From Clostridia bacterium (lineage in GTDB: Bacteria; Bacillota; Clostridia; Oscillospirales; CAG-272), in the NCBI GenBank assembly GCA_024404655.1, contig JAKSPR010000001.1, forward strand, positions 1-32,157: 32,157 nucleotides of DNA, given 5' to 3'. Under the pieces are notes generated by a model. It saw nothing but the letters and a program-made list of their open reading frames with translations. It had not been told where the DNA came from and searched no databases. Shown in pieces: positions 4,814 to 30,200 of the stretch; position 1 is the first letter of the stretch; every line of letters starts with the position of its first letter. The translations under genes and the position numbers were made by a program.

Positions 4814-5995
4814 TTAGTGCTTCTTGGAGAGGACAACTGCAGCTGCGCAAGCCATAACGACTGCTGCAACAACAACGCCTGCATCTGCGGTCTTGGGGGA
4901 GGTGGGAGCAGGAGCAATAACTGCGGGTGCATCCTCGCCGCCTTCAACTGCGGGAGCGTCATCAACTGCAGGAACTTCTTCAACAGGAGCTTCCTCGACC
5001 GGGAAGTTGATCTCGTTGGAAACGAGGATTGCATCAGCACCCTGGTCAGCCATGTAGATACGGTTGCCGATAACGCCCAGCTGAGTGAAGTTGGTAGCGT
5101 TGTCGTAGCCGATGTGCATGACCTCGGAGAGGTCTTCCTGGTTCAGGACATAGAGCTGGGAATCAGCACCCTGGTAGGTGCAGACCAGCAGGTAGCCGCC
5201 GAGAGCGGTAACACCGAAGCACTCGTCGACTGCGTGGTCATACATGTAACCGGTACCGGTGTAGTCGATCTTGATGACAGTGTCACCCTTGGAACCCTTG
5301 CCGGTGTTGGCTGCCATGTAGATCATACCGTCTGCAGAAACACAGATGTTGTTGCAGTCGGTGATCGGGAAGGTGTTAGCCAGGTCAACATAACCGCCGC
5401 CTGCACCGTTGCCGAAGCTGGTGTTCAGAACAGGGTTGTTGACATCGGTGACATCGTAGCAGTAGATTCTGTCGGTGTCATAGTTGGTAACGAAGTACAG
5501 GTAAACCTTGCCGTCCTTTTCAAGAACGTCAGCACCGTTGATACCAACCTTGCCTTCGATCTCGATCTTGACCCACTTGATTTCCTTCAGGCCTTCAGCC
5601 TGGCAGATTGCAAAGTAGACAGCGCCGTTGTTTGCCTTGTTGGCAACACCCATGTAAACATAACCACGGGTATCAGCAGCGATAGCCTTGATGTATGCGC
5701 CGGGATCTTCGTCTTCGTCGAAGATGTAGGAGCAGACTTCCTTACCGGTTGCAGCGTCGAACTGATAAACAGTGGGCGCCGGACCCTGTAACAGACCGCC
5801 GTAAACATACTTGCCGTTGGGATCAACAGCAAATGCACGCATCTGGTATGCATCCAGATCGCCGTTTTCGTACAGAGCGAGCTCAGACAGCTTGAGGCCT
5901 GCGAGAGCATCATCGTACTTGCCGGCACTTACTGCACAGGTCGCGATCATCATGACAGCGAGAAGAGCAGCAAAGAGCTTAACCATTTTTTTCAT
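4814..5995 (-). CDS. Secreted, probably cell-wall-anchored protein with a beta-propeller-like repeat body
   Basis: Start chosen at MKKMVKLFAALLAVMMIATCAVSAG (signal peptide), with GGAGG (6005-6009, - strand) 9 nt upstream. Recurrent strand motifs: YVYGG, YVYMGVA, VYLYFVT, IYCYDVT, MIYMAANTG, IYMADQG. A Pro/Ala/Glu/Val linker is followed by 'SPKTA-D', an 18-aa hydrophobic stretch and 'SKKH'. Confidence 0.8.
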   Translation of the reverse strand: MKKMVKLFAALLAVMMIATCAVSAGKYDDALAGLKLSELALYENGDLDAYQMRAFAVDPNGKYVYGGLLQGPAPTVYQFDAATGKEVCSYIFDEDEDPGAYIKAIAADTRGYVYMGVANKANNGAVYFAICQAEGLKEIKWVKIEIEGKVGINGADVLEKDGKVYLYFVTNYDTDRIYCYDVTDVNNPVLNTSFGNGAGGGYVDLANTFPITDCNNICVSADGMIYMAANTGKGSKGDTVIKIDYTGTGYMYDHAVDECFGVTALGGYLLVCTYQGADSQLYVLNQEDLSEVMHIGYDNATNFTQLGVIGNRIYMADQGADAILVSNEINFPVEEAPVEEVPAVDDAPAVEGGEDAPAVIAPAPTSPKTADAGVVVAAVVMACAAAVVLSKKH

Positions 5996-6100
5996 GATTC
6001 TATTCCTCCATAAATATTGTCGCAGAGACATCAAGTGGCAGTTGATATCCGGAGCGAATTCCGTTTCCGCAAAAACGAGCGGAAACCTCGACTGATTCCT

Positions 6101-9537: not shown

Positions 9538-9567
9538 AAAAAAGCGGGGGGCACCCCCTGCTTTTTT
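9538..9567 (+). terminator. Intrinsic terminator after the GH2-TIM barrel operon
   Basis: AAAAAAGCGGGGGGCACCCCCTGCTTTTTTAC: a GC stem followed by a T6 run. Confidence 0.85.
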
Positions 9568-9643: not shown

Positions 9644-9672
9644 TTTTATGGATCCCGTCGTAATGTTATAAT
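9644..9672 (+). promoter_or_regulatory. Putative promoter of the binding-protein-led operon (extended -10 type)
   Basis: TGTTATAAT extended -10 (hexamer 9667-9672), with a weak -35 TTTTAT (9644-9649) at 17 nt. Confidence 0.35.
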
Positions 9673-9747
9673 TAAGATGCAGGCGGGATGATGCATCCGG
9701 TTATACAGCGACATAGCTATACAGCCTGCGGAAAGGAACAATCCGAT

Positions 9748-11241
9748 ATGAATCATTCTGTAAACCTGAAAACGGCGGCTGTGTCCGTTCTGCTCCTGTC
9801 AGCGATTCTGACAGCCTGCGGCGGGGAGACCGCACAGAATCCCGTGACGACAAACGCACCGGGCGGCACGGCTGCAGCCCCTGCTGTCACAGAGGCAGTG
9901 ACCGAAGAAAATCGTCTTTACCCAGCCTACGAACTTGATCTTGGCGGTTCGGATTTCCACATGTTCTATTTTGATGAGGTCGGTATGTGCGGATGGTCAA
10001 GCGAGATCCCCAACGACCTGTATGCAGCGGAGGAAACCGGTGATATTCTGGCGGATGCGGTTTACCGCCGCAATCTTTCCGTGGAGGAAAAATACAATGT
10101 CAAGCTGACGGCAGAAGCCTGCCCGGACTGGGATATCACCGCGCGTGTGTCAAAATCCGTTTTGTCCGGTGCCGGCAGCTATGATGCGGTGTTCCCGCAC
10201 TGGCAGATCATGCAGCCGCTGATCACGGGGAACTATCTGACCCAGCTGGACAGTTATCTCGACGTTTCCATGCCGTGGTGGGATGCGCGCTCCAAAGAAG
10301 GCTTCTCTGTGGGCGGAAAGACCTTTGCATTGTCGGGAGACCTGACCTTTATGGATAAGTTGACCGACATTGTTCTGTTTTTCAATAAGAAGATGGCGGC
10401 AGACTATGATCTCGGTGATATCTATCAGATGGTCGTTGACCATAAGTGGACTTTTGATAAAATGCTGGAGATCTGCTCGAACCTGTCTGCGGACCTTGAC
10501 AATAACGGCAAGTATGATAAAAACGACCGTTTCGGTTTTGCCGGACAGAACGATGCTTCGTATGAGCTTTTCAACTCCTCCGGTGAGAAGTTCTGCTCCA
10601 TCGGTTCCGACGGTGTTCCGTATCTTTCCAACGACAGCGAGCGCGCCATCGGCGTCATGATGCGGGTATATGAGTTCATGAACGATTCCCGCAGCTTCTT
10701 CAACCGTCAGGCGGCGAACCTCTCAGTTGCGGATGCCATCAATATGTTCAAATCCGATAATGTCTTTATCCTTATGCGCCCGCTGCAGACGGTCATGGAG
10801 CTGCGTTCCATGAATGCGGACTTCGGTATCATCCCCACACCGCTGATGGATGATGCACAGACGGATTATTACACTTCCATTGGCTATACTGTTGCCATTG
10901 CGACCTGTATTCCCTCGGATGCCAAGGATGTCACAGTTTCTGCAGCGATTCTCGACACCATGGCAGCGGAATCCTATTACTCCATGAATGAAGTTTTCTA
11001 TGACATGGTGCTCGGCTCCAAGGTGATCCGGGACGATATTTCCCGGCAGAATCTGGATATTATTTTTGAAAATCATCTTTATGATCCCGGCTGTATATTC
11101 GGCTTCGGCGGCATGGCATCCGAATTCCTGAACAACTATAAGAACCGGACCGACAAGGTGGCATCCACCATTGAAAAATTCAAGCCCAAGGTCGAAAAGG
11201 ATATCGAGAAGTTCATGGATACCCTTGCAAATCTGGAATGA
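9748..11241 (+). CDS. ABC-transporter extracellular solute-binding lipoprotein (large, about 500-aa sugar/oligosaccharide type)
   Basis: Start chosen at MNHSVNLKTAAVSVLLLSAILTAC|GG (lipobox LTAC), with GAAAGGAA 8 nt upstream. Size and composition fit a family-1 binding protein. No permease or ATPase gene is adjacent. Confidence 0.85.
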   Translation: MNHSVNLKTAAVSVLLLSAILTACGGETAQNPVTTNAPGGTAAAPAVTEAVTEENRLYPAYELDLGGSDFHMFYFDEVGMCGWSSEIPNDLYAAEETGDILADAVYRRNLSVEEKYNVKLTAEACPDWDITARVSKSVLSGAGSYDAVFPHWQIMQPLITGNYLTQLDSYLDVSMPWWDARSKEGFSVGGKTFALSGDLTFMDKLTDIVLFFNKKMAADYDLGDIYQMVVDHKWTFDKMLEICSNLSADLDNNGKYDKNDRFGFAGQNDASYELFNSSGEKFCSIGSDGVPYLSNDSERAIGVMMRVYEFMNDSRSFFNRQAANLSVADAINMFKSDNVFILMRPLQTVMELRSMNADFGIIPTPLMDDAQTDYYTSIGYTVAIATCIPSDAKDVTVSAAILDTMAAESYYSMNEVFYDMVLGSKVIRDDISRQNLDIIFENHLYDPGCIFGFGGMASEFLNNYKNRTDKVASTIEKFKPKVEKDIEKFMDTLANLE

Positions 11242-11269
11242 TTCCGGAAAATGAAAGGAAGAAACTAAA

Positions 11270-12019
11270 ATGAGTTATCAGAATAAGACCGTAATAATCA
11301 CAGGCGGCGCATCCGGTATGGGTCTGCTCTCCGGTCAATGTTACGCAAGAGAAGGCGCAAACGTCGTCCTTGTGGATATCAATAAGGAAATGCTGGAGGA
11401 AAAGTGTGCGGAGATTGCAGCATATCCGGCAAATGTGCTGGGTGTGTGCATCGACATCCGCAATTATGATCAGGTGGAGGATGCCTGCCGTCAGGCGGTA
11501 GAAAAATTCGGCTCCATTGATCTGCTCATCAACAGCGCAGGCGGCGCAGAGACACGGATCTGCAAGGTCGGCGGAGAATTCCAGGATATTCCGATCGACG
11601 TCTATGATTTCGGTATTGACGTCAATCTGAAAGGTGCGATCTATTTTGATCATGCTGTCATGAAGCAGATGGCAAAACAGAAGAGCGGCGTCATCATTCA
11701 TCTCGGATCCATCACGGGACAAGAAGGATGTTCGGTCAACATCGCCTACAGTGCTTCTAAATCCGCGCTGATGAACGGTGTAACGAAATCCATTGCACTG
11801 GCAGGTGCGAAGTACAATATACGCACGGTCTGTGTCGCACCCGGTCCGGTCCTTACCCGTCCCGGTATGGCAGGTATGAAGACCCTCTGCGGCAGAGCGG
11901 CAGAGCCCCAGGAGATCGTCGATATGATCATGTATGCGGCATCCGATAAGTGCGCGTTCTTGAATGGAACCACTATATTAATGGATGGCGGACGCAATGT
12001 CATGTTCAATAAAACCTGA
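11270..12019 (+). CDS. SDR family oxidoreductase
   Basis: 249 aa. 'TGGASGMG' dinucleotide motif, 'NSAGG', catalytic 'YSASK'. RBS AAAGGAAG. Confidence 0.9.
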   Translation: MSYQNKTVIITGGASGMGLLSGQCYAREGANVVLVDINKEMLEEKCAEIAAYPANVLGVCIDIRNYDQVEDACRQAVEKFGSIDLLINSAGGAETRICKVGGEFQDIPIDVYDFGIDVNLKGAIYFDHAVMKQMAKQKSGVIIHLGSITGQEGCSVNIAYSASKSALMNGVTKSIALAGAKYNIRTVCVAPGPVLTRPGMAGMKTLCGRAAEPQEIVDMIMYAASDKCAFLNGTTILMDGGRNVMFNKT

Positions 12020-12037
12020 TAATATGAGGATGGATTT

Positions 12038-12769
12038 ATGAAACGCTTTGAGGGGAAATGCGTCATGATCACCGGTGCCTCGGTGGGCATCGGGCAGGCA
12101 TGCGCAGAGCAGTTTGCAAAAGACGGTGCCAATTTGGTTCTTGCTGATGTTGATCTGGAAAAACTGGAAATTCTTGCAAAGACACTGCAGGACACCTGTC
12201 AGGTCAGGGTTTTATTTGCATTATGTGATGTCTCCAATGATGCGGCTGTCCGGAAACTTGTCAGTGATGCCTGTGAAGCATTCGGACGGATCGACATCCT
12301 TGTCAACAACGCCGGAATCTGGCGGCGGTTCATGCCCTTTACTGAGACGACGAGTGAGATGTGGAAAAAATACATTGATGTCAACATTCTCGGCACCATG
12401 TACTGTACGCATGCGGTGCTGCCGGGCATGCTTTCTGCCGGATGGGGCCGGGTTATCAATGTCGGTTCTGTTGCCGGAGTTTATGGCAATGCCAATATGG
12501 TGGACTATTCCACGACAAAGGGTGCGGTTATCGCCTTTACGAAAGCTCTGGCAAAGGAAGTTTCGCCCAAAGGCGTAACAGTGAACTGCGTCTCCCCGGG
12601 CAGCGTCAGCAACCATCAGGATGAGATCGAGCCCTCGGAGCTGTCTTTCATGGGACGCACCGGAACACATACGGAGAACGCAAACATGATTTGTTTCCTC
12701 GCAAGCGACGAGGCAGCTTATATTTCCGGTCAGAATATTCAGGTTGACGGCTGCAGGAAAAAGATGTGA
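12038..12769 (+). CDS. SDR family oxidoreductase (second paralogue)
   Basis: 243 aa. 'TGASVGIG', 'NNAGI', catalytic 'YSTTK'. RBS GAGGA 7 nt upstream. Confidence 0.9.
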   Translation: MKRFEGKCVMITGASVGIGQACAEQFAKDGANLVLADVDLEKLEILAKTLQDTCQVRVLFALCDVSNDAAVRKLVSDACEAFGRIDILVNNAGIWRRFMPFTETTSEMWKKYIDVNILGTMYCTHAVLPGMLSAGWGRVINVGSVAGVYGNANMVDYSTTKGAVIAFTKALAKEVSPKGVTVNCVSPGSVSNHQDEIEPSELSFMGRTGTHTENANMICFLASDEAAYISGQNIQVDGCRKKM

Positions 12770-12803
12770 CAGGAGCAGAAAAAGAAAGGTACGGTTATCC
12801 GAT

Positions 12804-13580
12804 ATGATCTATAAACCAACATTTTTGCATCAGAACCGTCCGCTCAACACCTGCATGATCCAGACGGATCGTGCGGATATCGCGCGGAATCTGAGCCGGG
12901 ATGCGGCTTTTGACGGCTGTGACGCTTACGGCTTCCAGATGGAATGCTTTGATAAGAACAGCCGAACGGAGGATGTGATCCGAGGCATTTTTTCCTTCAT
13001 GGACGGGAAACCCATTTACGTCACCAATTACCGTTATCAGCAGAACGCAGGAATGACGGACGATGAACTGTCCGAGGGATTATTTTTCCTCCGCCGCTGC
13101 GGGGCAACCCTGCTTGATGTGATGGGAGATTATTATTGTCCCACGCCGGGTGAACTCACCATGGATCCGGATGCCATTGCAAAACAGAAGGATCTGATCG
13201 CGCGGATCCATGACGCGGGCGGAGAGGTCCTCATGTCCTCCCATGTGCTGAAATACACCCCGGCAGAAGAAGTGCTCCGTATTGCAAAGGAGCATGAAGC
13301 CCGCGGCGCGGATATCGCCAAAATCGTCACGGCAGCAAACACCGAGGAAGAAGAACTGGAAAACCTGCGCATCACCACGCTTCTGCGGCGTGAGCTGAAC
13401 ATCCCGTTTCTGTTCCTCTCAGGCGGCAGTCACTGCCAGCTGCACAGGACCATCGGTCCGATGCTGGGCTGCTGCATGTGGCTGACTGTCCATGAGCAGA
13501 CGAACACGGCTACCAAATCCCAGCCCTCGACCCGTGCCATCCGCGCAATCGCCGATAATTTTTCGTACACACACCCGTGA
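12804..13580 (+). CDS. Type I 3-dehydroquinate dehydratase (AroD)-like protein, outside any shikimate-pathway context
   Basis: 258 aa from the ATG at 12804. It aligns by eye with the C-terminal half of E. coli AroD: 'EVLMSSHVLKYTPAEE' (His-143 region), 'GADIAKIVTAANTEEE' (Schiff-base Lys-170 region) and 'FLFLSGGSHCQLHRTIGPMLG' (the MSMxxxGxxSR region). Confidence 0.72.
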   Translation: MIYKPTFLHQNRPLNTCMIQTDRADIARNLSRDAAFDGCDAYGFQMECFDKNSRTEDVIRGIFSFMDGKPIYVTNYRYQQNAGMTDDELSEGLFFLRRCGATLLDVMGDYYCPTPGELTMDPDAIAKQKDLIARIHDAGGEVLMSSHVLKYTPAEEVLRIAKEHEARGADIAKIVTAANTEEEELENLRITTLLRRELNIPFLFLSGGSHCQLHRTIGPMLGCCMWLTVHEQTNTATKSQPSTRAIRAIADNFSYTHP

Positions 13581-13629
13581 CTATGCCAATATACATATCT
13601 GTGACCTATGCAAAAAGGAGAAACCTCAA

Positions 13630-14619
13630 ATGAAAGCCATTCTTGTTAATCCCGATAAAAGCCTTGTCTGGACTGACGTCCCGACCCCTGTTCCCGCCGA
13701 TGATGAAGTCCTTGTGGAGATTTGCTGCGCAGCGCTGAACCGTGCAGACCTCATGCAGCGCGACGGCGATTATCCGCCCCCTCCCGGCTGTCCCGAATGG
13801 ATGGGACTGGAAATCTCCGGTTATGTCCGTGAACTGGGCAAAACCGCGCAGAAGATGAGTGGCTGGAAGATCGGAGATGCGGTCTGTGCATTGCTCGGTG
13901 GCGGCGGATATGCCCAGTATGTCACAGTCAAATATGACATGCTGATGCCCGTCCCCAAGGGCCGCACGATGGAAGAAGCAGCGGCAATCCCCGAAGCTTA
14001 CTGTACCTCTTATCTGAATCTGTTTATCGAGGGCGGAGCGAAAGCGGGAGATACCCTGCTCATGCAGGCAGGTGCATCGGGACTGGCTTCTGTTGTCATC
14101 CCCATGGCAAAAGCGTTTGGACTTCGTGTCATCACAACTGTCATCAGCGATGAAATGGCGGAGCGCATCAAGCCTCTCGGAGCGGATATCATTGTCAATA
14201 CTGCAAAGGAAGCGCTTTCCGATGTACTTCGGGCGCAGCTGGAAGCGGGTACTCCTGTGGATATTGCTATTGACTGTCTCGGCGGAGCATCCATGGGTTC
14301 GTGTCTGCCTTATCTTGCCCGCGGCGCGCGGTGGATCATGATCGCAGCGCTGACCGGACAGATCACGGAAATTGATCTGAAAAACATCTATGTCCGCAAT
14401 GTCCGCATCATTGGTTCGACCCTGCGTTCCCGCACACCGGAGTTCAAGGCAGAATTGCTCCGGAAACTGGTGGCAGAGGTCTTCCCGAAGATGGAACAGG
14501 GGCTCATCCCGCCTTTCATTTACCGCGTCCTTCCCATTACGGAAGCGGAAACCGCTCATGCGATTATGGCAGAAGGAAAACACAACGGCAAGATTGTCAT
14601 GACTGTGCCGCATGATTGA
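13630..14619 (+). CDS. Zinc-independent MDR, NAD(P)H:quinone/enone oxidoreductase (PIG3/Qor type)
   Basis: 329 aa from the ATG at 13630, with GGAG 9 nt upstream. 'ALNRADLMQRDGDYPPPPG' signature and 'AGASGLAS' nucleotide loop. Confidence 0.87.
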   Translation: MKAILVNPDKSLVWTDVPTPVPADDEVLVEICCAALNRADLMQRDGDYPPPPGCPEWMGLEISGYVRELGKTAQKMSGWKIGDAVCALLGGGGYAQYVTVKYDMLMPVPKGRTMEEAAAIPEAYCTSYLNLFIEGGAKAGDTLLMQAGASGLASVVIPMAKAFGLRVITTVISDEMAERIKPLGADIIVNTAKEALSDVLRAQLEAGTPVDIAIDCLGGASMGSCLPYLARGARWIMIAALTGQITEIDLKNIYVRNVRIIGSTLRSRTPEFKAELLRKLVAEVFPKMEQGLIPPFIYRVLPITEAETAHAIMAEGKHNGKIVMTVPHD

Positions 14620-14628
14620 ATAACGACG

Positions 14629-14668
14629 CAGCGGACCAGCTCTGAAAGCTGGTCCGCTGTTTGTTTCA
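14629..14668. terminator. Intrinsic terminator between convergent MDR and TIM-barrel genes
   Basis: Perfect 13-bp stem CAGCGGACCAGCT (14629-14641) / AGCTGGTCCGCTG (14647-14659), followed by TTTGTTTC on +. The T-tract on the - strand is weaker. Confidence 0.8.
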
Positions 14669-14676
14669 CTTGATTC

Positions 14677-15534
14677 TTATGCAAGGCGTTCCAGAATCCG
14701 GATCGACTGGCGCACGCCCTCATCAAAGGGTTCCGGATGGCAGAGTTCCAGCGCATAGACACCGTCATAGCCGGCTTCACGCAGAACTTCCATACAGCCG
14801 GTGATGTTGACCGTGCCGTCTCCGGTGAGCACATCCCGCAGCCACATCTGATTCTTTCCGTTCTCCATGGGCAGCCAGTAGATACCGGGCTGTTCCGGAG
14901 ATTTCTTGCGCAGATAGTCCTTGACGTGGACGTGCCGGATCTCTTTGGCATAAGCACGGAAGAAATCCTCCGGCTCAGTGCCGACGAACAGGGAGTTGCC
15001 CATATCGCCGCAGACGCCGACATTCGGACAGACGCGCCTGACTTCATAATAGAACTTTCCGAAGTTCTCAACACCGTTTGCATACATGCCCTGATCTTCA
15101 TAGAGGCAAGTCAGTCCCAGCGGGGCGGACGCACGGGCAATGCGGACAGCAGCTTCTGCCGCGGTTTCCAGCGCTTCCTCAGCATTTGGAATATCCGCTC
15201 TCGGACGGAGACCGGGGATCAGCGTGTGATGGAGGAACGGGGAACCGATGGCAGCAGCCAGCTCCGCATGGAGGAGCAGGTTTTTCTCGGATTCCGGGTC
15301 ATGGTACAGATTGACGCCTACCGAATAGCAGGCAAGGGAGATACCGCGGGCAGACAGAGCGGCTCCGGCCTGTTTTGCAGTGTCGGTATCGCGGAGCAGC
15401 GGTGTTTTGCCCGGTCCGGCAGTATCCAGTACCTCCCCATAGGGAAGACCGAGTGACAGCATCTTATCGGCGGTTTTATCTGTGCCTGCTTCCAGAAGCA
15501 ACTCGATGAAGTTTGTATACATGGCAAATTTCAT
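14677..15534 (-). CDS. Xylose-isomerase-like TIM-barrel protein (second, divergent copy)
   Basis: 285 aa. Blocks 'CLYEDQG', 'CGDMGN', 'HVHVKD' and 'ALEL'. GAGG 9 nt upstream of the ATG at 15534. Confidence 0.82.
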   Translation of the reverse strand: MKFAMYTNFIELLLEAGTDKTADKMLSLGLPYGEVLDTAGPGKTPLLRDTDTAKQAGAALSARGISLACYSVGVNLYHDPESEKNLLLHAELAAAIGSPFLHHTLIPGLRPRADIPNAEEALETAAEAAVRIARASAPLGLTCLYEDQGMYANGVENFGKFYYEVRRVCPNVGVCGDMGNSLFVGTEPEDFFRAYAKEIRHVHVKDYLRKKSPEQPGIYWLPMENGKNQMWLRDVLTGDGTVNITGCMEVLREAGYDGVYALELCHPEPFDEGVRQSIRILERLA

Positions 15535-16421: not shown

Positions 16422-17453
16422 ATGGAAAATCAGAAATTCATGCAGCCGATGGAGCATCTCCACATGCTGCTCGATACCGAAGTCCCGTCCATGCGCTGGG
16501 ACGGCGTCACCCCGATTGCAGATTGGCAGAAATGCGCAAGAGAAAAGCTGGCGGCGCTTGTAGGTCTTGATGAAATCGAGCCTTACAGAACCGATGCGCG
16601 TCTGGAAATCGAATTTGACCGCATCTGCGAAGAGGAAGGCTTCCGCGAGATCCGTTTCCGCTTTTATTCCGAAGAAAACGTCTCTGTTCCATGTCATCTG
16701 GTTCAGCCGCTTGGCGCAGAGAAGCCGTTGCCGGTGGTGATCTGTCTGCAGGGACATTCCAAAGGAATGCATATTTCCCTCGGCAGACCGATCTATCCGG
16801 GAGACGAGGAAACCTGTCACGGCGGAGACCGTGATTTCTGCGTTCGTGCAGTCAAAGAGGGCGTCTGCGCCATCGCAATGGAGCAGCGCTGTTTCGGCGA
16901 ATCCGGTGGTACCGAAAAGGGACCCGACTGCAGACAGGCTGCCATGCGTGCGATCCTGCTCGGACGGACACTGATCGGTGAGCGTGTATGGGATATCATG
17001 CGCCTGATCGACGTCATTGAACAGAACTTCACTGAAATCTGTGATAAGGATAAGATTATGTGCCTCGGCAATTCCGGCGGCGGTACGGCAACGGTTTATG
17101 CGTCTGCTCTGGAGACCCGCATCAGATTCGCCGTTCCGTCCTGCGCAGTATGCCGTTTCGCGGATTCCATCGGTGCGATGATGCACTGTGAGTGCAACTT
17201 TGTTCCGGGAATTGCAAAGGTCTTTGATATGGGAGAATTGTGCGGTCTGATCGCGCCCCGCAAGCTGGTGGTGGTCTCCGGTCACAACGATCCGATCTTC
17301 CCGCTGGATGGGGCGAAGGCGTGTGTCGCAGAAGCAAAACGCATTTATACTGCATTAGGTGCGCCCGACAACATTGCCCATGTGGTCGGCGATGGCGCAC
17401 ACCGGTTCTATGCTGGTGACGCATGGCCGGTCATTCATGCCATGGCGGACTGA
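16422..17453 (+). CDS. Alpha/beta hydrolase (acetyl-xylan-esterase / dienelactone-hydrolase-like carbohydrate esterase)
   Basis: 343 aa. Nucleophile elbow 'LGNSGGG', and C-terminal 'GHNDPIFP' and 'GDGAHRF' supplying the Asp/His candidates. RBS CAGGAGGA. Confidence 0.82.
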   Translation: MENQKFMQPMEHLHMLLDTEVPSMRWDGVTPIADWQKCAREKLAALVGLDEIEPYRTDARLEIEFDRICEEEGFREIRFRFYSEENVSVPCHLVQPLGAEKPLPVVICLQGHSKGMHISLGRPIYPGDEETCHGGDRDFCVRAVKEGVCAIAMEQRCFGESGGTEKGPDCRQAAMRAILLGRTLIGERVWDIMRLIDVIEQNFTEICDKDKIMCLGNSGGGTATVYASALETRIRFAVPSCAVCRFADSIGAMMHCECNFVPGIAKVFDMGELCGLIAPRKLVVVSGHNDPIFPLDGAKACVAEAKRIYTALGAPDNIAHVVGDGAHRFYAGDAWPVIHAMAD

Positions 17454-20392: not shown

Positions 20393-21466
20393 TTATTTCA
20401 AACCAAGCTCTTCCAGCGCACAGGGATAGACCTCCCCGCGGCCCTGATTCGGGGCATTCAGGACATGCTCGGCAAAGAAGACGGTGACAGCATGGGTTCT
20501 GTCTATGGCGAGATAGGAATTTGCGGCACCGTCCCAGCCGAAATCAACAGGACTGTCGGGACCTGCTCCGGGTCCGGGGCAGCGGACTCCGAGACCGTAG
20601 CCGTAAACCGGATTGTACCAATAGGATTTGATCTGACTGTCCGTGAGTTTGTTTTCCGCCATCAGGTCCGTGGTTTCCCGGCTTATAAGAATATCTCCTT
20701 TGCGCATGGCTTCAAGAAACAGGATGTAGTCGGAAACGGAGGAAATACATCCCGCGCCGCCGCTCTCATATTCTGTGCCCAGCTTATAGCCCTGAATCTG
20801 TTTGCCACAGTTGACAAAAGATTTATTCTCATGATCGTAGCGGTATTGTTCGGCGAGGGTATCAAGCTCTGTATCGGGCAGAGAAAAGGTAGATTCCTTC
20901 ATGCCGACGGGATCAAAAATATGGCGCTTTACATAGGTTCCGAACCGCTCACCGCTGATGACTTCCACAAGGGCTGCTAAAACGTCATGACAGAGACTGT
21001 AGTTCCAATGTTCACCCGGTTCAAAGCAAAGGGGTTCTTTTGCAAGATAACGCATGGTTTCCCGTGTGGGACAGCGTCCGGCGGTTTCCTCTCTTGCTTT
21101 GCGGAGGGCGGGGGACCAGAGATCATAGGAAAATCCTGCGGTCATCGTGAAAAGATCCCTGATGCGGATGGGATGCTCTGCCCGCCGCACATCATCCCCG
21201 GCACCCACTGTCATATCTCCGAACTCCGGCATATAGTCGGCCAGAGCATCGTCGAGGCGGTAAAGTCCTTTTTCATAAAGCTGCAGAGCGGCAGTACAGG
21301 TGATGGGCTTGGAGCAGGAATAAATATTATAGCGAAAAGGCGCGTTTTCGGCATCTCCGAAACGGCGGCGATAGACGATATCTCCCTGGTATGCGACAGT
21401 ACAGTCACAGCCGGGGACACCGATTCCGATATAGCTTTCCAGAATGGAAGTCAGTTTTTCAAACAT
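20393..21466 (-). CDS. Serine hydrolase, beta-lactamase (class C / esterase EstB-like) family
   Basis: 357 aa from the ATG at 21466, with AGGAG 9 nt upstream. SxxK motif in 'YSCSKPIT' and a 'WNYS' Tyr motif. No signal peptide. Confidence 0.87.
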   Translation of the reverse strand: MFEKLTSILESYIGIGVPGCDCTVAYQGDIVYRRRFGDAENAPFRYNIYSCSKPITCTAALQLYEKGLYRLDDALADYMPEFGDMTVGAGDDVRRAEHPIRIRDLFTMTAGFSYDLWSPALRKAREETAGRCPTRETMRYLAKEPLCFEPGEHWNYSLCHDVLAALVEVISGERFGTYVKRHIFDPVGMKESTFSLPDTELDTLAEQYRYDHENKSFVNCGKQIQGYKLGTEYESGGAGCISSVSDYILFLEAMRKGDILISRETTDLMAENKLTDSQIKSYWYNPVYGYGLGVRCPGPGAGPDSPVDFGWDGAANSYLAIDRTHAVTVFFAEHVLNAPNQGRGEVYPCALEELGLK

Positions 21467-21506
21467 ATCCGATTTCTCCTTTTGGTTAGATAATCCGTAA
21501 TTTATC

Positions 21507-23108
21507 TTAGAAGCCACAGTTGCTCACGAGTGTCTTCCAGTCGGAATTCCAGAAACTCTCCTCATTTGCATAAGGGGAAAGATCCGGACGGACAGTTTCA
21601 TTTTCAAGTTCGGCAACGGGGGTTCCCATGGTGAGATATTCGTTCAGTTTTCTTGCAAGATAAGCAAACCGCACGCGCTGGGCACCAAGGAAGATCTGGT
21701 CGATTTCCAATCCGTAAGGCATATTGTCGCAAAGCCATGTATCCTCATAGACAGGAATGTAGTCGTCAAGTGCCTGCTGCAAAGCGGAAAGCTGTCCGGC
21801 ACAGTCGGCAAGAGCTACTGTATCGTGCTCTTTATACGCCCTTCGCAGTCTGACACCGAGGGTGGATTTGAGTGACAGGACAATCGCGAATTTCTCCGCG
21901 CAGCGGAACAGATGTGAATAAGCGCCGCCCGCACCGGAATCAGCGATGCTTCTGTAATGTTCCGATAGTTTCTGATATGCTTCCGGTGTCTTTGGATTCA
22001 GCATCAGATCCCAGCCGCCGTTTGCGATGTCGGTCAGAAAGATCCAGAAAGAACGGTTTCCGTGCCAATCCGCGGGGCGGTTGTCAAAAATGTCATCGAG
22101 ATTGTCAAGGGACAGAAGCGCATCATAGTCGCCGCCTGTCAGGTGAGAAAAGCGTTCCTTGTCCGGTGTGCCGACGCCGTTCCATGTGCCGCGGGCATAT
22201 TCTGCGGCGGCATAAAGCGCGGGGAGCACGGAATAATTATTGACCCAAGCACCGTTATCCGACCACAGCGTCACCATGAAGGAATCCAGTCCTTTTTCCG
22301 CGGCAATCTTCATCTGCGGGATCAGACGGGCTAAACTGAATGTGTTCAGAGATGTCATGGAGCCGCACTTGAAGGCAGTTCCCGCATAAGCGACTTTGTC
22401 GGCATAGTGCTTCATATCGTCCAGCTTTTTTTGCAGGGCGATTTCGTCCTTTTCCCAATAGTCCCAGTACCAGACTGTGACATCGTCCGGAAGCGCCGCA
22501 CGGACGTCACGGGATGTCACATGGGTATTGTCGGTCTCGACCAGCATATCATGCCAGATTTCACAGGTATAGCCGAAACTTTCTGCAATTTTCAGAACCT
22601 GTTTCAGATGGCGGAGCAGAATTTCCTTTTTGTCGGCAGGGCCGTGTTTTTTCAGATAATTTCCGGTACCCAGACCCCAGCATTCATCGAAACCGATGTG
22701 GATGCGCCGGGAAGACAGTCCCTCGGAAATAGCGGAAAACATGTGTTTAATCAGCGTGTAGACCCGTTCATCATCTGCTAAGAGGATGTTTTTCGTATCC
22801 ATCATATCCCGGTAGGACTCATGCCGCTCCAGAAAGTCAAGATGGCCGAGGGTCTGGATATTGGCGATCAATTCGATGCCGCAGGAGTGGGCGTGCGCGT
22901 CCATGTCCTTGAGTTCCTCTGTCGTATATCCGCCCCGTTTGTAATTGAAATAGGGTTCTTCCTTGATCTTATAAGCATCGGTAAGTCCGAGATACAGTTC
23001 CGTATATCCCATTCCGGAAAGCATTGTCAGAAACCGCTTGACGGTCTCCGGTGTCGGTGTTGACCCGGTGGAACATTCGATCAGCGCGGATAGATGTTTG
23101 AATTTCAT
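21507..23108 (-). CDS. Glycoside hydrolase family 20 (beta-N-acetylhexosaminidase-like)
   Basis: 533 aa from the ATG at 23108. The TIM barrel starts with 'LSGMGYTELYLGLTDAY', and the catalytic pair lies in 'RIHIGFDECWGLG' (HxGxDE). No signal peptide. Confidence 0.83.
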   Translation of the reverse strand: MKFKHLSALIECSTGSTPTPETVKRFLTMLSGMGYTELYLGLTDAYKIKEEPYFNYKRGGYTTEELKDMDAHAHSCGIELIANIQTLGHLDFLERHESYRDMMDTKNILLADDERVYTLIKHMFSAISEGLSSRRIHIGFDECWGLGTGNYLKKHGPADKKEILLRHLKQVLKIAESFGYTCEIWHDMLVETDNTHVTSRDVRAALPDDVTVWYWDYWEKDEIALQKKLDDMKHYADKVAYAGTAFKCGSMTSLNTFSLARLIPQMKIAAEKGLDSFMVTLWSDNGAWVNNYSVLPALYAAAEYARGTWNGVGTPDKERFSHLTGGDYDALLSLDNLDDIFDNRPADWHGNRSFWIFLTDIANGGWDLMLNPKTPEAYQKLSEHYRSIADSGAGGAYSHLFRCAEKFAIVLSLKSTLGVRLRRAYKEHDTVALADCAGQLSALQQALDDYIPVYEDTWLCDNMPYGLEIDQIFLGAQRVRFAYLARKLNEYLTMGTPVAELENETVRPDLSPYANEESFWNSDWKTLVSNCGF

Positions 23109-23264: not shown

Positions 23265-25955
23265 TTACCAGACAAATTCATAATCACCGGAACCGAGGGT
23301 GATCATCTCGCCGGTCGTGGGAACGGTAAGGACTGCAGTTGCATTGACCGGAACGGTGCAGGTATAATGAATCTTTTCGCCTTCATACGCCCATGCGCTC
23401 TTAATGAGACCGCAGACGGAATTGTAGCAGGCGGAGAGATGTCCGATGCGTGCATCCGGGGTCGGAGCCAGCGTGATTGTCTGATAACCGACAGTCTGCG
23501 GACGGACACCTGCAGCGTAGCCAAACAGCCACTCGGAGACACAGCCGTATGCGTAGTGGTTGAAGGAGTTCATGCCCACATCGCCGAAGCCGTCCTTGAT
23601 GGAGTAGGAGTTCCAGCGCTCCCAGATGGTGGTGGCACCTGCCTTGACACTGTAAAGCCAGGAGGGCATTGCATCCTGCAGAAGCAGCGTATAAGCGATA
23701 TCGTTGAGACCGCAGTCAGAGAGGGTCGGCAGCAGGATGCTGGTACCGAGGAAGCCTGTCTGCAGGCGGTTGCCGCTGTTTGCAATATTGCTTGCCAGCT
23801 GTGCTTTGACGGCTTCCACGGACTTTTCATCCGGCAGAAGTCCGAGCTTCAGAGCAAAGAGTGCTGCACACTGCTGGGACAGCTTAACGGTGCCGTCCTC
23901 ATTTACGTAAGTTTTCTCAAAATAAGCCTTCTGCTCCTCATAAACGGCTTGATAGCGGACTGCATCGTCACACTTTCCAAGTGCTTTTGCCATGTCAACC
24001 ATCAGCGCAGCATCCCATGCTTTATAGCAGACGCCGAGCATGGTCTGCAGCTCCTGATCGTTGGGCTCAAAGGACAGCCAGTCACCCCAGATATTGACGG
24101 TACCTGCCGTGCCGCGGTGACGCATGAAGCAGTTCATATAGAGCTTCATGGACGCATAGTTCTCTTTGAGAATGGTATCGTCGCCGGACATTCTCCAGAC
24201 ATAATAGGGAACAAGAATACCTGCATCGGACCAGCCGGTGCCGCCCAGTTCATTGCCGTAGCGTCCGCGGGGCGCAACACCGGGATAGGAGCCGTCAAGA
24301 CCCTGAGAATCCCGGAGGTCCTGGGTCCATTTCTCGTGGAAAGACTGGGTAGAGGTGGAATAATACTGTGCTGTGGTGGTATAAACCTGCGTATCTGCCG
24401 TCCAGCCGTAACGCTCGTCACGCTGCGGACAGTCGGTGGAGATGGAGAGGTAGTTGGAGATCATACCCCAGCGGGAGTTGGAGATCAGCTGATTGACATA
24501 AGTGTCTCCGGTTTCTACCATACCGCTGTCGTAGTTGATGCTCGTCACGACCTCACCGACGATGGAGGAGAAGTGAACATCCGCATCTGCGGTGATGGAG
24601 AGATAACGGAAGCCGTAGAAGGTATAAATCGGGCGGAATGCTTCTTCCTTGTCGGAACCGATGATATAGTTGGTTGCAGCCTGTGCACCGCGGAGATTTT
24701 CGATATAGACAGCACCTTCAGGACCGTCATTGCCGCGGGAGCGCTTGCCGTTGCCGTCGCAGAGCATTTCGCTGTGACGGATGGTAATCTTCGTGCCGGC
24801 TTTGCCCGTGACGTGGAAATATTCCCGTCCGGCGGCGTTCTGACCGAAGTCGATGACAGCGGTCTCACCTGCATGCAGGATGAAATCGGTGGAATCGTAG
24901 TTTACCACATTGTCGATCTTACCGTATTCCTTAACGGCGCGGTCTTCGCTGTCCACAGCACCGACGGCACCCTTATAGGTGTAAACCTTAACTGCTTTGC
25001 GGGTCAGGTCATAACGGCAGATGACGGAATCACCGACCATGGACTGGACGATACCTTCAAAACCGTGGGAAACGACTGCGTTTGCCCATGCGGAGTCGTC
25101 AAAACCGGGCAGCATATAAGCGCAGGAAATACGTGCGTCGTAGGTCTCGCCGCCGTAGACGGATGCGTTTACAACGGGATGCTCTGTGGAAACTTTCCAT
25201 GCGGAGCTTGTTGCGATGACCTCAGAAGTTCCGTCTTCATATTCCAGAACGAGGGCGGCCTTGAAGATGGCAAGCTCACCTGTGTGATCTGCGATCACGT
25301 CAGACCACCAGCCGGAGGTGACGGTGGCGGTGATGCAGTTGGCACCTGCTTTTACCAGCTCCGTGACGTTATAGCTGTGATAGAATTTGCGCTTGAGAAT
25401 CTCGGTGAAGCCGGGCTTCATCTCATATTCGACTTTATTGCCGTCAGCATCATAATTGAAGGGTCTGACACCGTTGATATATGCTTCGTACATACCGGCA
25501 CCGACGGTGAACAGCTTTGCTGCTTTGACCGTCTTTGCCGGGGTAAACTCATGACGGAATGCAGGAACGGATTCCGGGCTGACGCCGGGGACGCGGGGCA
25601 GGGAGAGGAAATCGGCATTGTCTAAAAGTCCGGAGTCCATAACGCCGGTGGAGAAACAGATCGTCTTTTCTGCGGTTTTGCCGTCGGAGAGGGTGGTTTT
25701 CAGGGTGACGGTATAGTCTTTTGCTGGTTTCAGTGCTTCTGCAGCATAGGTGACGTGTTTCTTATCAGTGGTAACAATGCCGCTGTCCCATACGGTTTTT
25801 CCGCAGGCACAGACAACTTTGATCTGATAGGATGTCTGCACAAGGTTCTTGTCTGCGGCCTCTGCTGCATAATTCCAGGAAAACCGGGGGTTCTGGGTAT
25901 CAATACCCACCGGAATGGTGAGCTTTTCTGCTTTCAGGCTTGCAAGTACTGCCAT
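23265..25955 (-). CDS. Alpha-L-rhamnosidase, glycoside hydrolase family 78
   Basis: 896 aa from the ATG at 25955, with AGGAG 8 nt upstream. 'GIDTQNPRFSW' N-terminus and six-hairpin catalytic block 'STDCPQRDERYGWTADTQ'. No signal peptide. Confidence 0.93.
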   Translation of the reverse strand: MAVLASLKAEKLTIPVGIDTQNPRFSWNYAAEAADKNLVQTSYQIKVVCACGKTVWDSGIVTTDKKHVTYAAEALKPAKDYTVTLKTTLSDGKTAEKTICFSTGVMDSGLLDNADFLSLPRVPGVSPESVPAFRHEFTPAKTVKAAKLFTVGAGMYEAYINGVRPFNYDADGNKVEYEMKPGFTEILKRKFYHSYNVTELVKAGANCITATVTSGWWSDVIADHTGELAIFKAALVLEYEDGTSEVIATSSAWKVSTEHPVVNASVYGGETYDARISCAYMLPGFDDSAWANAVVSHGFEGIVQSMVGDSVICRYDLTRKAVKVYTYKGAVGAVDSEDRAVKEYGKIDNVVNYDSTDFILHAGETAVIDFGQNAAGREYFHVTGKAGTKITIRHSEMLCDGNGKRSRGNDGPEGAVYIENLRGAQAATNYIIGSDKEEAFRPIYTFYGFRYLSITADADVHFSSIVGEVVTSINYDSGMVETGDTYVNQLISNSRWGMISNYLSISTDCPQRDERYGWTADTQVYTTTAQYYSTSTQSFHEKWTQDLRDSQGLDGSYPGVAPRGRYGNELGGTGWSDAGILVPYYVWRMSGDDTILKENYASMKLYMNCFMRHRGTAGTVNIWGDWLSFEPNDQELQTMLGVCYKAWDAALMVDMAKALGKCDDAVRYQAVYEEQKAYFEKTYVNEDGTVKLSQQCAALFALKLGLLPDEKSVEAVKAQLASNIANSGNRLQTGFLGTSILLPTLSDCGLNDIAYTLLLQDAMPSWLYSVKAGATTIWERWNSYSIKDGFGDVGMNSFNHYAYGCVSEWLFGYAAGVRPQTVGYQTITLAPTPDARIGHLSACYNSVCGLIKSAWAYEGEKIHYTCTVPVNATAVLTVPTTGEMITLGSGDYEFVW

Positions 25956-25988
25956 GATTGTATCTCCTTTTTCGGTTCGTAGCATTTA

Positions 25989-27263: not shown

Positions 27264-30200
27264 TTACTTCTCACAGAGTCCCATTTTATCGTATGGGACA
27301 TTTCGATATTCTGGCATTGTATTCCAAATATCGGAGTTTTCGGGAATCTGATACCGTTCATTGAGCGGATTATTTTTTGAAATCAGGTTGCAGTCAAGAC
27401 CGTCGGCTGTTTTTAGCCCTACCTCAGAGATATTGAAAGCAGTTTTGGCATCAATGATGATATTATTTTTATATATGTTCCAAGCAGGCTCTCTGAGCAG
27501 ATCCTCGAGCGCATTTCTTGTATATCCGGGCACCTCGGTTTCCTGAGCATGTTTCTGCATTGATTCATAATAAGTTGTGAAAATCGGATAACGGGCTGCA
27601 AATGCGCTGTTTGAAACCTTGTCGGCTCCATTTGAAAGCACGCTTTCTCTGATTGCAGGCCAGCGCACAGAAGTCTGTGCATAATAATTCGCATTGTCAG
27701 CAAATGCAGAATTCGTCGCTCCGATCGTGATATTGTTCCAGAAAACACATTCTCTGCCGTTATGCAGTCGGTATGTCATTTTTCCATTGAATGCAGCGTC
27801 AAGTTCAGAATTCTTGACATCCACGATATTGCCGTATACATACTGACCGCTTGCACAGTCATCGATATAGACGCCGGCATGTGATGCAGCCATATCATGG
27901 AGATAATTATAGCGTATATGATTGCCTCTGCTGGATAAATCACAGCCGATCATATATATCATACCTGCGTCTGCAGTCGTCAGAGAACCATGGACAAACT
28001 CGTTGTATTCAAGAATACATTCATTGGAAGGAGATACGGTCGCGATCGCTCCGTCGTAAAGATTATGAGAAATAACCGATCCAACCCCGCTGGTATTTGT
28101 TCCGGTCTGCTCGACACCATCACGGAAGACGCAGTTCTGAATAAAGTTGTAATCGGGTTTCAGTACTGCCCGATTCCCAGAACCAAGAACAGCCTGGGCA
28201 GCACCGTTTGCATAAAACAGCGAATACATGACACCGTTTTTCTCACCCGCTCTGATAACAAGTCCGTTTGTTCCGTTACCAAAAAACGTGCAGTCTTCAG
28301 AGATGACCTCATAACCGTCTGTGATTTCAACCCCCTTTTGCATGGTTCCGGTAACGGTAAGACCATTAAAGACAACACAGGAGGCCTGTGATACCGAGAC
28401 TACAGGATCTTTACTGGTAACAAGAGACATGTCTTTCATATCCCCGTCTGGATAATAATAGAGTTTTCCGGCTTTTGAGTCAAGATACCACTCTCCTGGG
28501 ACATCAAGCGCTTCGAGGACATTATAGAAAAAGTAATAGTTGTCACTTTTCTGAAGTGCACCATAGGTCGCGCTGACCGATGAGGTCACAGTCTTTGTCC
28601 CGGCATCCAGTGTAACCGGATAGTGCAAACGTTCCCATTCCGCATAAACAGAACCAAAGATCCAAAGGTTCTGTGTATCCTGCCAGGTATATGGGGTCGG
28701 ATCATCAAGCCTGATCGTCCATCCGCAGGTCTTTTCGCTGTTTTCAGCATACAGTGCACTGTGTGCACTGGAAACTTTGCCGACCTCAATGACCTCGCCC
28801 ATCAATATCTCACCATCCTCCACGTTGGGATATCTGGCTAGTGTCTGTGCGATTCCATTGACAAAGAAACCGGGACGGCTTCCGGTTTCAAAAGATCCGA
28901 GATCATTTTTTTGATAACCAAGTGCAAAAAGGTCGCATACAAGCACTTTGTCAGCAATATCCGGTTTTAACCGTGTCAGTATGTCATGATCGGTAACCTG
29001 GACAAAATCCTCTTTTGAGATACTTATGCCAGCTGTAAGAACCGGTTTTTCATTGTTCCATGCAGAAATAAAGAGAGGAGAGGCATCTGTGCCGGAGTGG
29101 ATTTCCGTGATAGACAGCGTACCATCCTGTTGGTAGTTCCCGCCGCGCAGCCATATAACTCCTCCAGACATACCAGCCAGACGGTCAAGTCCCGCCTGAA
29201 TGGTTGCAAGCGGTGCCTGCTCTGTACCTGCTGCGCTGTCATCACCGTCAGGGGACACCCAGATCTGGTTTCTCATGGATCTTGGATAATCCTCCGGCGA
29301 GATCCTATTCTGAACGGTAACCTCCTCCGGAAGTTCCGCAATTGCCTGGTTAAATGCCTCCATGACACCACCATCTTCTGCTGCAGAGATATTCATCGCC
29401 TTGTATGTGTCAGGCAGATTGAAGGAGATGAGCGGAGTTATCTGGTTGCGAACAGTTTTTCCATTAAGAGATACTGAAAGAATTTTTTCACCGCTTTCTG
29501 CTTTGACTGCTGAGGAAAGTTCGGAAATTGCTGGAAAATTCTCGTAAAGAAAATCGTTTATGCCGAGAAGAAGTTGATCATCACCGTTTCCGGCGATCAT
29601 GACACTGCCATCCTCACCCGTAATGGTATAGGTTCCGACATCACCTGCCGGAGTCGACAAGATCCGTATGCTGCAGGGTGCATCTGCGAGCTCAGGATCA
29701 ACAATATCCGGATAGACACCGCAGAGCTCGGAAATCCGCTTTGCCAAGTTGATTATGGCATATCCTTCTTTGGTTTGTGGTTTTAGATCAGAAACGATCT
29801 GATATTCTTTTACATCGTGCCCTTGAAGGACAATACGTTCCACCGGATAAACTGCAGTATATAAAAATCCATTTTCGCCTTCCGGCAGCATAAGTATCTG
29901 GTTTTCGGAATCAATGCAGTGCTCACAGAACCATGCAACAGCTGTTTCAGTGGCAGAAGGGCTGCCGCCGAGAATCAGGATTCGCTCTCCCGCAATGCGT
30001 ATAGTAAAATCGTTCTGCCGGAGATCAGAAAGAGCTGTAATGGACTGCGGTCTGTTAGTCTCACCGATCAGAATCTCCCGTCCGCTTTCAGGTACTGTCT
30101 CCCCGCGCTTGACCCAGTCAGTAGTCAGTACGAAATCGCGTCCGAAAGATTCTTTCAGATATTTTCCAAGCGTTATGGCTGCAGCTGTTTCTTTTTCATC

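Follow-up and report, generated by a model that had tools for sequence, protein, structure and literature searches.

What does a protein of the dehydroquinase fold do in an operon with no aro gene nearby? The question is raised by a contig of 32,157 nucleotides (JAKSPR010000001.1, positions 1 to 32,157, assembly GCA_024404655.1) from a Clostridia bacterium (Oscillospirales; CAG-272), which is referred to here, at its full length, as the window. A five-gene operon on its plus strand encodes, in this order, a solute-binding lipoprotein, two short-chain dehydrogenases/reductases (SDR1 and SDR2), a divergent relative of the type I dehydroquinase AroD (the AroD-like protein) and a medium-chain dehydrogenase/reductase (MDR) of the PIG3 type. 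Type I dehydroquinase is regarded as a single-function enzyme of the shikimate pathway. A reading made from the letters alone (the sequence-only reading) had proposed that the four enzymes of the operon carry out a redox-neutral dehydroxylation. We conclude that the AroD-like protein has the dehydroquinase fold and works through a Schiff base, but is not an AroD equivalog. The operon is read here, tentatively, as an accessory catabolic module for the reductive dehydroxylation of a ring acid, with hydroaromatic plant acids of the quinate/shikimate type as leading candidates.

The AroD-Like Protein

The AroD-like protein matches the DHquinase_I family (PF01487) with 55.5 bits, above the gathering cut-off of 22.2 bits. 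It fails the AroD equivalog TIGR01093 (44.2 against 139.3 bits) and also NF002683 (24.5 against 329 bits). Sequence and profile searches of the PDB matched dehydroquinases only, including bifunctional dehydroquinase/shikimate dehydrogenase. An AlphaFold2 model, built with 18 homologues as input, reached a predicted local distance difference test (pLDDT) value of 91.4. Compared by Foldseek, its top 49 matches were all type I dehydroquinases or bifunctional enzymes, with query-normalised TM-scores (TMq) of 0.67-0.78 (0.70-0.78 for the top 46) and 13-19% identity. The comparison with AroD by profile hidden Markov model and predicted structure, which the sequence-only reading had proposed, therefore confirms the fold and aligns the equivalents of His143 and Lys170.

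The likeness to AroD (EC 4.2.1.10) extends from the TIM barrel to the active site. The catalytic His143 and the Schiff-base Lys170 correspond to H147 and K173, and phmmer, hmmsearch, MAFFT and hhalign agree in this assignment. They lie in the segments ‘MSSH’ and ‘ADIAKIV’ that had been singled out from the sequence, and each of them is kept in 320 of the 322 family sequences over which conservation was counted. AroD Arg213 corresponds to R215 (MAFFT and hhalign; 321/322), Arg82 to R77 (290/322) and Gln236 to Q240 (301/322), and the M-S-x-H motif is retained as well. In AroD, Arg213 forms a salt bridge to the substrate carboxylate (PMC13247285). The differences are also considerable, as the protein is only 15-22% identical to AroD, carries Gly in place of Met205 and Val in place of Phe225 of the Escherichia coli enzyme, and has an insertion of about 10 residues in the beta4-alpha4 loop. 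Its family is further marked by a largely conserved N-terminal KPTFL motif. Judged from this residue set and from the model, the protein most likely still catalyses an imine-assisted beta-elimination on a carboxylated substrate.

A Conserved Core of Dehydrogenase and AroD-Like Protein

The AroD-like family is large. It has 3,276 members at E <= 1e-3 in a collection clustered at 90% identity, and about 227 clusters at 50% identity with E <= 1e-30. All of its organism-named matches are uncultured Clostridia-type metagenome-assembled genomes (MAGs). In a scan of the 185,579 species genomes of GTDB about 413 matched, and the neighbourhood figures given here refer to the best 80 of these 413 loci, inspected as 8-10 kb flanks around the AroD-like gene. 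A census by tblastn covers 80 loci and one by clustering of open reading frames (ORFs) covers 81; the genes of the related loci were called by a crude combination of ORF finding and clustering, which makes the counts approximate. The best 80 loci are nearly all labelled Clostridia-type MAGs. Most of them come from animal guts; the sources named are roe deer, goat, sheep, buffalo, chicken and human, and many of the hosts are herbivores.

By tblastn, 62 of the 80 loci have an SDR gene (at least 50% identity) adjoining the AroD-like gene, and ORF clustering places an SDR in 71 of 81. The SDR1 orthologues are 53-79% identical, and in most loci their gene immediately precedes that of the AroD-like protein. 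MDR orthologues are found within 5 kb in 32/80 loci (23 of the 49 with full flanks) and SDR2 orthologues, 53-66% identical, within the same distance in 12/80. Orthologues of the binding protein, counted at >= 40% identity and within 5 kb, occur in 7/80 loci and additionally in locus L088. The adjacency of SDR and AroD-like genes is more than chance, because it recurs in most of 80 independent loci. The linkage, with or without the MDR, is kept across about 50% sequence divergence and under different regulators. Indeed, among divergent members, L092 shows the order LacI-SDR-MDR-AroD-like and L090 the order AraC-AroD-like-extended SDR. The conserved core is thus the SDR plus the AroD-like protein, with or without the MDR. 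The combination of an upstream SDR1, an SDR2-type gene and an MDR is present in one of the 49 loci with full flanks; together with the binding protein it is present in no related locus, and the exact five-gene set is found only in the window. The recurrence in Clostridia that had been suggested for the whole set is therefore borne out for the core and not for the full five-gene order, in which SDR2 (about 15% of loci) and the binding protein (about 10%) are occasional members.

Divergently transcribed genes from two ORF clusters, both AraC-type regulators as read from their sequence, are found upstream in 28 and 20 loci, a sum of up to about 48 of 81 in which the clusters may overlap; Pfam confirmed AraC/HTH_18 at L083, L085, L088 and L090. 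Two MAG assemblies carry two AroD-like genes each, on different contigs and in different arrangements (L007/L046 in JAZRXB01 and L044/L048 in JAZSMX01). The module looks like an accessory catabolic unit and not a unit of the shikimate pathway, because AraC-like or LacI regulators flank it, some assemblies have two copies, and only about 413 of the 185,579 genomes matched. No aro gene was found in any of the 80 related neighbourhoods, where kinase, aldolase and CoA ligase genes likewise do not recur. Within the window, as had already been noticed from the sequence, no shikimate-pathway gene is present among the large ORFs of the 32-kb contig; the same holds for ABC permeases and ABC ATPases, and the binding protein is accordingly unaccompanied.

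Other recurrent members of the related operons are a zinc-dependent alcohol dehydrogenase (Zn-ADH) with a Gfo/Idh/MocA oxidoreductase, metallo-beta-lactamase (MBL)-fold hydrolases, GDSL, beta-lactamase-fold, M20 peptidase-family and NAD-epimerase-like proteins. In a Pfam census of the 116 neighbouring ORFs of L001-L032, no family was found in more than 5 of them. The best NCBIfam matches of the Zn-ADH and Gfo/Idh/MocA partners include IolM and IolG, respectively; both lie far under their cut-offs and are taken as resemblances at family level only. For the Zn-ADH the match is tied with two other families. An aldo/keto reductase fused to a 4Fe-4S ferredoxin-like domain (cluster 14) occurs near the AroD-like gene in 7 loci, three of which are listed in Table 1.

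The Dehydrogenases and the Reductase

Both SDRs are classical members of their family by motifs, by a length of about 250 residues and by their adh_short matches. SDR1 shows the motifs TGGASGMG, NSAG and YSASK in its translation, and the Asp at the end of beta2 suggests that it uses NAD(H). In a search for its homologues, every name returned was ‘SDR family oxidoreductase’. SDR2 has the motif YSTTK. The MDR scores 331.7 bits against TIGR02824 (PIG3), over the cut-off of 296.8 bits, and its closest relatives in the PDB are the human PIG3 entries 2j8z and 2oby. It has no zinc-ligand motif, as ‘GLE’ stands where ‘GHE’ is expected.

Proposed Reaction Sequence

From these components we infer the following order of reactions, a role for each reductase and a class of substrates. 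An SDR would oxidise a hydroxyl on the ring of a carboxylated polyol, and the resulting ketone would present the 2-hydroxy-4-oxo-acid motif seen in 3-dehydroquinate; this motif is likely the common denominator of the substrates. The AroD-like protein would then form an imine on the ketone through Lys173, His147 would take the alpha proton, and the beta hydroxyl would leave as water to give a conjugated enone, with Arg215 holding the substrate carboxylate. The C=C bond of the enone would be reduced by the PIG3-type MDR and the ketone by the second SDR, giving an alcohol. The lipoprotein would bind the substrate, either free or conjugated, on behalf of an ABC transporter whose genes lie elsewhere. 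The logic of oxidising, dehydrating, reducing C=C and reducing C=O is plausible, and the linkage of SDR, AroD-like protein and MDR is what ketone formation, imine-assisted beta-dehydration and enone reduction would predict.

Turning R-OH into R-H takes up two electrons. The proposed sequence is reductive and not redox-neutral, because its one oxidation and two reductions consume one net NAD(P)H for the hydroxyl removed. The net consumption would make the pathway a fermentative electron sink, which is sensible for fermenters. The four-enzyme sequence as first proposed therefore stands in part. The Lys/His pair, the AroD fold, the SDR linkage and the frequent PIG3-type MDR speak for it, and the redox neutrality and the conserved five-gene unit have to be abandoned.

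Several known systems resemble this scheme. In E. coli ydiB-aroD, the gene for a type I dehydroquinase-fold protein likewise follows directly on a dehydrogenase gene, and a transporter is encoded close by; YdiB, however, has the AroE fold and is not an SDR, there is no ene-reductase, and AroD is a housekeeping enzyme there. The AroD-like gene, in contrast to aroD, sits in an AraC-associated operon with SDR and MDR genes, away from aro genes. The bai pathway of bile acid 7-alpha-dehydroxylation, also of gut Clostridia, combines a 3-oxo-forming SDR, a dehydratase, ene-reductases and an SDR in a net reductive electron sink, but its enzymes come from unrelated families (BaiE is SnoaL-like, and flavoenzymes are represented by BaiCD and BaiH) and act on a steroid by CoA thioester chemistry. 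In 3-keto-glycoside lyase pathways and in NanOx/YjhC, a ring hydroxyl is oxidised to set up a beta-elimination, after which the ketone is reduced again. Gfo/Idh/MocA and TIM-barrel genes, which are associated with the former, also occur in the window and in part of the related operons. In those systems the eliminating enzyme is a metal-dependent TIM barrel or the dehydrogenase itself, whereas here it would be a Schiff-base dehydroquinase homologue, and the added ene-reductase would make the sequence net reductive.

Beside the bai pathway, a second precedent for this logic comes from lactobacilli and gut flora that reduce quinate and shikimate, where a hydroaromatic acid is oxidised, dehydrated and reduced as an electron sink of anaerobes. 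Lactobacilli are said to reduce both acids to dihydroxycyclohexanecarboxylate (Whiting and Coggins, 1971-74), and gut flora reportedly turn them into cyclohexanecarboxylate or benzoate (Adamson, 1970; Brewster, 1978). The organisms differ, and to our knowledge no genes have been assigned to these conversions, which makes a link by sequence impossible. A 2024 review of gut polyphenol enzymes lists esterases releasing quinic acid and no enzyme acting on it (PMC11572103). Full-text searches on quinate and shikimate in gut, rumen and lactobacilli, on dihydroshikimate, on AroD-like proteins and on hippurate clusters returned no paper that describes the AroD-like family or the SDR/AroD-like module, nor was a characterised member of the family found.

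The Binding Protein

The matches of the binding protein are informative mainly at the level of fold. Its SBP_bac_1 match of 22.7 bits is under the threshold of 26 bits, and a sequence search of the PDB gave no significant match (one at E = 0.91), for which reason a comparison of folds was needed. The top Foldseek matches of the AlphaFold2 model (pLDDT 87.6) are oligosaccharide binders (5f7v, 7vfr, 2gh9 and 7x0l; E 1e-14 to 1e-12). The ligands of the matched CUT1/MalE-like proteins are cycloalternan, lacto-N-tetraose, maltotriose, sophoro-oligosaccharides and cellodextrins. A glycoside, oligosaccharide or conjugate is therefore more likely as ligand than a free small acid.

Homologues with 46-59% identity adjoin the SDR/AroD-like pair in L011, L024, L026, L038, L040, L047, L049 and L088. 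No permease was found beside them in the ORF maps of L011, L024, L038, L047 and L049 or among the called genes of L088, where unnamed ORFs were partly scanned. The absence of permease and ATPase genes, which had been noticed in the window, is a conserved property of the family, because its orthologues and homologues recur without permease genes beside them in several loci. Beside the orthologues there is often a second AraC-like gene together with one for an intracellular protein of glycoside hydrolase (GH) family 10, or else a GDSL esterase gene. More distant homologues, again without permease genes, adjoin modules of a glycyl-radical enzyme and its activase with AraC-type regulators (L088 151-4559 and L089 5447-10485). 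The binding-protein family seems to accompany diverse catabolic modules.

Substrate and Alternative Explanations

As to the substrate, the leading guess of quinate or shikimate draws on the dehydroquinase fold with its retained carboxylate-binding residues, as judged from sequence and model. Extra dehydrogenases of the ring-polyol type (Zn-ADH and Gfo/Idh/MocA) in several operons, the herbivore-gut origin of many MAGs and the analogy with E. coli ydiB-aroD point in the same direction.

A number of observations weigh against it. Glu86, the partner of His143 in AroD, is replaced by Asn81; Asn is found at this position in 245/322 relatives, 26 are gapped, and the position is deleted in the relative P0005. 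In AroD, the C4/C5 hydroxyls of dehydroquinate are contacted by Glu46 and Arg48. By its strand register, the AlphaFold2 model suggests that Glu46 is replaced by Gly43, Trp47 by Phe44 and Arg48 by Gln45; the N-terminal half aligns without confidence, hhalign stops short of it, and MAFFT pairs Glu46 with Asp40. Given this apparently changed hydroxyl-binding side, the ligand is probably not dehydroquinate itself. The binding protein resembles oligosaccharide binders and not organic-acid binders, and for this reason fits free quinate poorly, so that sugar acids and conjugates stay candidates. PIG3 itself is known as a quinone reductase, and the enone reduction ascribed to the MDR is drawn by analogy from the wider group of quinone oxidoreductase (QOR)-type MDRs. 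About half of the loci have no MDR, and the full four-step cycle is therefore not general. The mechanism as a whole is built on sequence and models. Glycosidases and esterases in the neighbourhoods, with a lactonase and a sugar-acid type dehydratase at one locus, point to sugar acids.

The last points lead to the strongest competitor, in which the chemistry is the same and the substrate is a sugar acid. The AroD-like protein would eliminate water, or a glycosidic or methoxy group, and the reductases would process the enone. We regard this as possible, although rather unlikely. Candidate substrates are 3-deoxy-2-ulosonic acids, such as 2-keto-3-deoxygluconate (KDG), 4-deoxy-5-hexosulose uronate, the 3-deoxy-octulosonic and 3-deoxy-heptulosaric acids Kdo and Dha and the sialic acids, and uronic acids, for example 4-O-methylglucuronate. 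Their SDR-oxidised pyranose forms would be ring-oxygen analogues of 3-dehydroquinate, and a Gly in place of Glu46 would leave space for a substituent. Non-phosphorylative routes for rhamnose, fucose and pentoses are known to use SDR-type 2-keto-3-deoxy-acid 4-dehydrogenases, and NanOx/YjhC works by 4-keto-sialic chemistry; both precedents favour a sugar acid. The CUT1/MalE-like fold of the binding protein favours it too, as does the wealth of glycosidases in the window (GH2, two GH78, GH20-like and GH141-like) together with a glucuronoyl esterase-like protein of carbohydrate esterase family 15 (CE15). A set of SDR, AroD-like protein, binding protein, AraC regulator and GH10 is present in L011, L047 and L088, and without the binding protein in L083. 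In L037, an SMP-30 lactonase, an SDR and a UxuA-like dehydratase lie upstream of the AroD-like gene, and a full ABC transporter, a weak GH30-like protein below threshold and a GDSL esterase lie downstream. Folds that include known lactonases also co-occur (MBL-fold in six operons, Amidohydro_2 in L046). Nevertheless, the module has no recurrent kinase, aldolase, isomerase or sugar-acid dehydratase beside it, and the carbohydrate-active neighbours are a minority that differs from locus to locus. The reduction of the enone of an ulosonate would yield a dead-end anhydro-deoxy acid, and the carbocycle-specific AroD fold and residue set are kept.

A different chemistry is also conceivable. Type I dehydroquinase is a member of the TIM-barrel superfamily of class I aldolases and has its Schiff-base Lys on strand 6. 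Instead of being a dehydratase, the AroD-like protein might work as a Schiff-base (class I) aldolase or C-C lyase with a keto acid as substrate, while the SDR and MDR handle the aldehyde or ketone fragments. Its membership in this superfamily, the apparently altered residues around the substrate hydroxyls and the lactonase and dehydratase of L037, which would fit an oxidative sugar route ending in aldol cleavage, agree with such a role. It is nonetheless improbable, as the dehydroquinase residues His143, Arg213 and Gln236 and the MSxH motif are kept and the top 49 structural matches include no aldolases. An upstream dehydratase that would supply a 2-keto-3-deoxy acid is missing from nearly all loci.

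A little less probable again is a housekeeping or salvage function, in which the protein is a genuine 3-dehydroquinate dehydratase, SDR1 replaces AroE/YdiB, (dehydro)quinate feeds aromatic amino acid synthesis and the other genes are bystanders. NCBI annotates the family as type I 3-dehydroquinate dehydratase, and the catalytic and carboxylate-binding residues are indeed kept. The minimal SDR/AroD-like pair mirrors ydiB-aroD, and some members stand alone (L081). Against these points, the score at the AroD equivalog cut-off is far too low (44 against 139 bits), Glu86 is not conserved, and Glu46 and Arg48 appear to be replaced as well. The flanking AraC-like and LacI regulators, the two assemblies with two copies, the patchy distribution and the absence of aro genes nearby do not suit a housekeeping enzyme, nor would the frequent MDR partner have a role there.

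That the five genes are mere neighbours, or are co-transcribed without a common pathway, is very improbable and already disfavoured: the restriction of the exact set to the window and the minority occurrence of the binding protein and SDR2 would agree with it, but the SDR/AroD-like(/MDR) linkage survives strong divergence and changes of regulator, the gaps between the genes are short and no internal terminator is predicted.

Operon Boundaries and Other Genes of the Window

The features of the operon are collected in Table 1. The description given from the sequence, of five plus-strand genes with gaps of 18-49 nt, their own ribosome-binding sites (RBSs) and bracketing terminators, agrees with the coordinates and the hairpin prediction, and the gene order is the one returned by Pfam, NCBIfam and the structural models. 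The intergenic gaps are, in gene order, 28, 18, 34 and 49 nt. A purine-rich RBS motif precedes every one of the five genes; the weakest is that of the AroD-like gene, AAAGG at about 15 nt upstream. The N-terminus encoded at 12804 coincides with the N-termini of homologues, and the binding protein starts at ATG 9748 (product MNHSVNLK...). The TGtTATAAT element is a plausible extended -10 promoter element on the letters; a consensus promoter scan did not list it. No terminator-like site is predicted on the plus strand between 9559 and 14628. The hairpin at 14628-14660 is probably shared with the convergent gene at 14677-15534, because it is predicted on the minus strand too. Rfam and tRNA scans of the window gave no match, and no riboswitch or leader was detected upstream of the operon.

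Table 1: Positions of the operon features in the window, and of reductase-ferredoxin fusions at related loci.
Feature	Position	Strand	Remarks
Upstream terminator	9546..9567	+	GC-rich stem 9546-9558, then TGCTTTTTTA (T-run); ends the GH2/TIM-barrel unit; 5' boundary of the operon
Candidate extended -10 element TGtTATAAT	9664..9672	+	Weak -35; read by eye from the sequence
Lipoprotein solute-binding protein	9748..11241	+	CUT1/MalE-like fold; lipobox LTAC
SDR1	11270..12019	+	adh_short 150.5 bits; conserved partner of the AroD-like enzyme
SDR2	12038..12769	+	adh_short 199.6 bits; accessory module member
AroD-like protein	12804..13580	+	Divergent type I dehydroquinase fold
PIG3-type MDR	13630..14619	+	Zinc-free
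Downstream terminator	14628..14668	both	14-pair stem 14628-14660, 9 GC pairs
Aldo/keto reductase-4Fe-4S fusions	L012 3755-4909; L081 11350-12474; L088 13922-15055		Within a few kb of the AroD-like gene

Outside the operon, the window has genes for glycosidases, namely a GH2 protein, two rhamnosidases of the GH78 type, one GH20-like and one DUF5696/GH101-like protein and a beta-helix lipoprotein resembling GH141. Two further products are of esterase type, one of them CE15-like and the other with a beta-lactamase fold. The remaining genes encode CysK, a MATE pump, a nucleoside-hydrolase-like protein, an oxidoreductase of the Gfo/Idh/MocA family and two TIM barrels that resemble xylose isomerase. 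The two TIM barrels flank the operon and had been taken as a hint of chemistry like that of AsbF or QuiC. They have no counterpart in the other loci and no informative relatives in the PDB or NCBIfam; the hint therefore carries no weight and was dropped.

The alpha/beta hydrolase at 16422-17453, 2 kb downstream of the operon, matches fungal glucuronoyl esterase (CE15) with 47.8 bits as well as AXE1, and may have a connection with glucuronoxylan or ester conjugates. The beta-lactamase-fold (PF00144) protein at 20393-21517 (minus strand) is about 50% identical to the product of L037 8774-9898, whose gene lies directly 3' of the AroD-like gene. PF00144 genes also follow the AroD-like gene in L059 and L065, and the protein may be an esterase acting on the same substrate class as the module. 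The predicted lipoprotein at 27264-30371 (minus strand; 1,035 residues) is a right-handed beta-helix with a weak match to the GH141 insertion domain. Together with the GH78-type genes (23265-25985 and 30797-32002) and the GH2 gene it suggests a context of pectin or rhamnose-rich glycans. The last gene (30797-32157, minus strand) contains the six-hairpin rhamnosidase domain only, and may be cut at its 5' end; its frame is open upstream to the end of the contig. The product of 4814-6034 (minus strand; 406 residues) has a hydrophobic N-terminal segment, no Pfam match and an Ala/Pro/Glu/Val-rich tail followed by a hydrophobic anchor.

Biological Significance

The AroD-like family represents a large, discrete and uncharacterised second branch of the dehydroquinase fold, recruited into regulated catabolic operons with dehydrogenases and an ene-reductase. 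The operon of the window is one instance of a widespread regulated module built round this repurposed fold. With a sugar acid as substrate, the module would represent a new way of eliminating substituents from keto-sugar acids, by a Schiff base. With quinate or shikimate, gut fermentation would gain a further electron-sink pathway, and the module would provide gene markers for a microbiome transformation, described decades ago, that contributes to urinary hippurate. A more specific version of this idea, which we consider doubtful, is that the module is the very set of genes with which anaerobes of gut and rumen carry out the reductive dehydroxylation of quinate and shikimate, the acids freed from chlorogenic acids and forage. 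The repurposed dehydroquinase would then perform the dehydroxylation, giving cyclohexanecarboxylate precursors of benzoate and urinary hippurate, and the pathway would serve these anaerobes as an electron sink.

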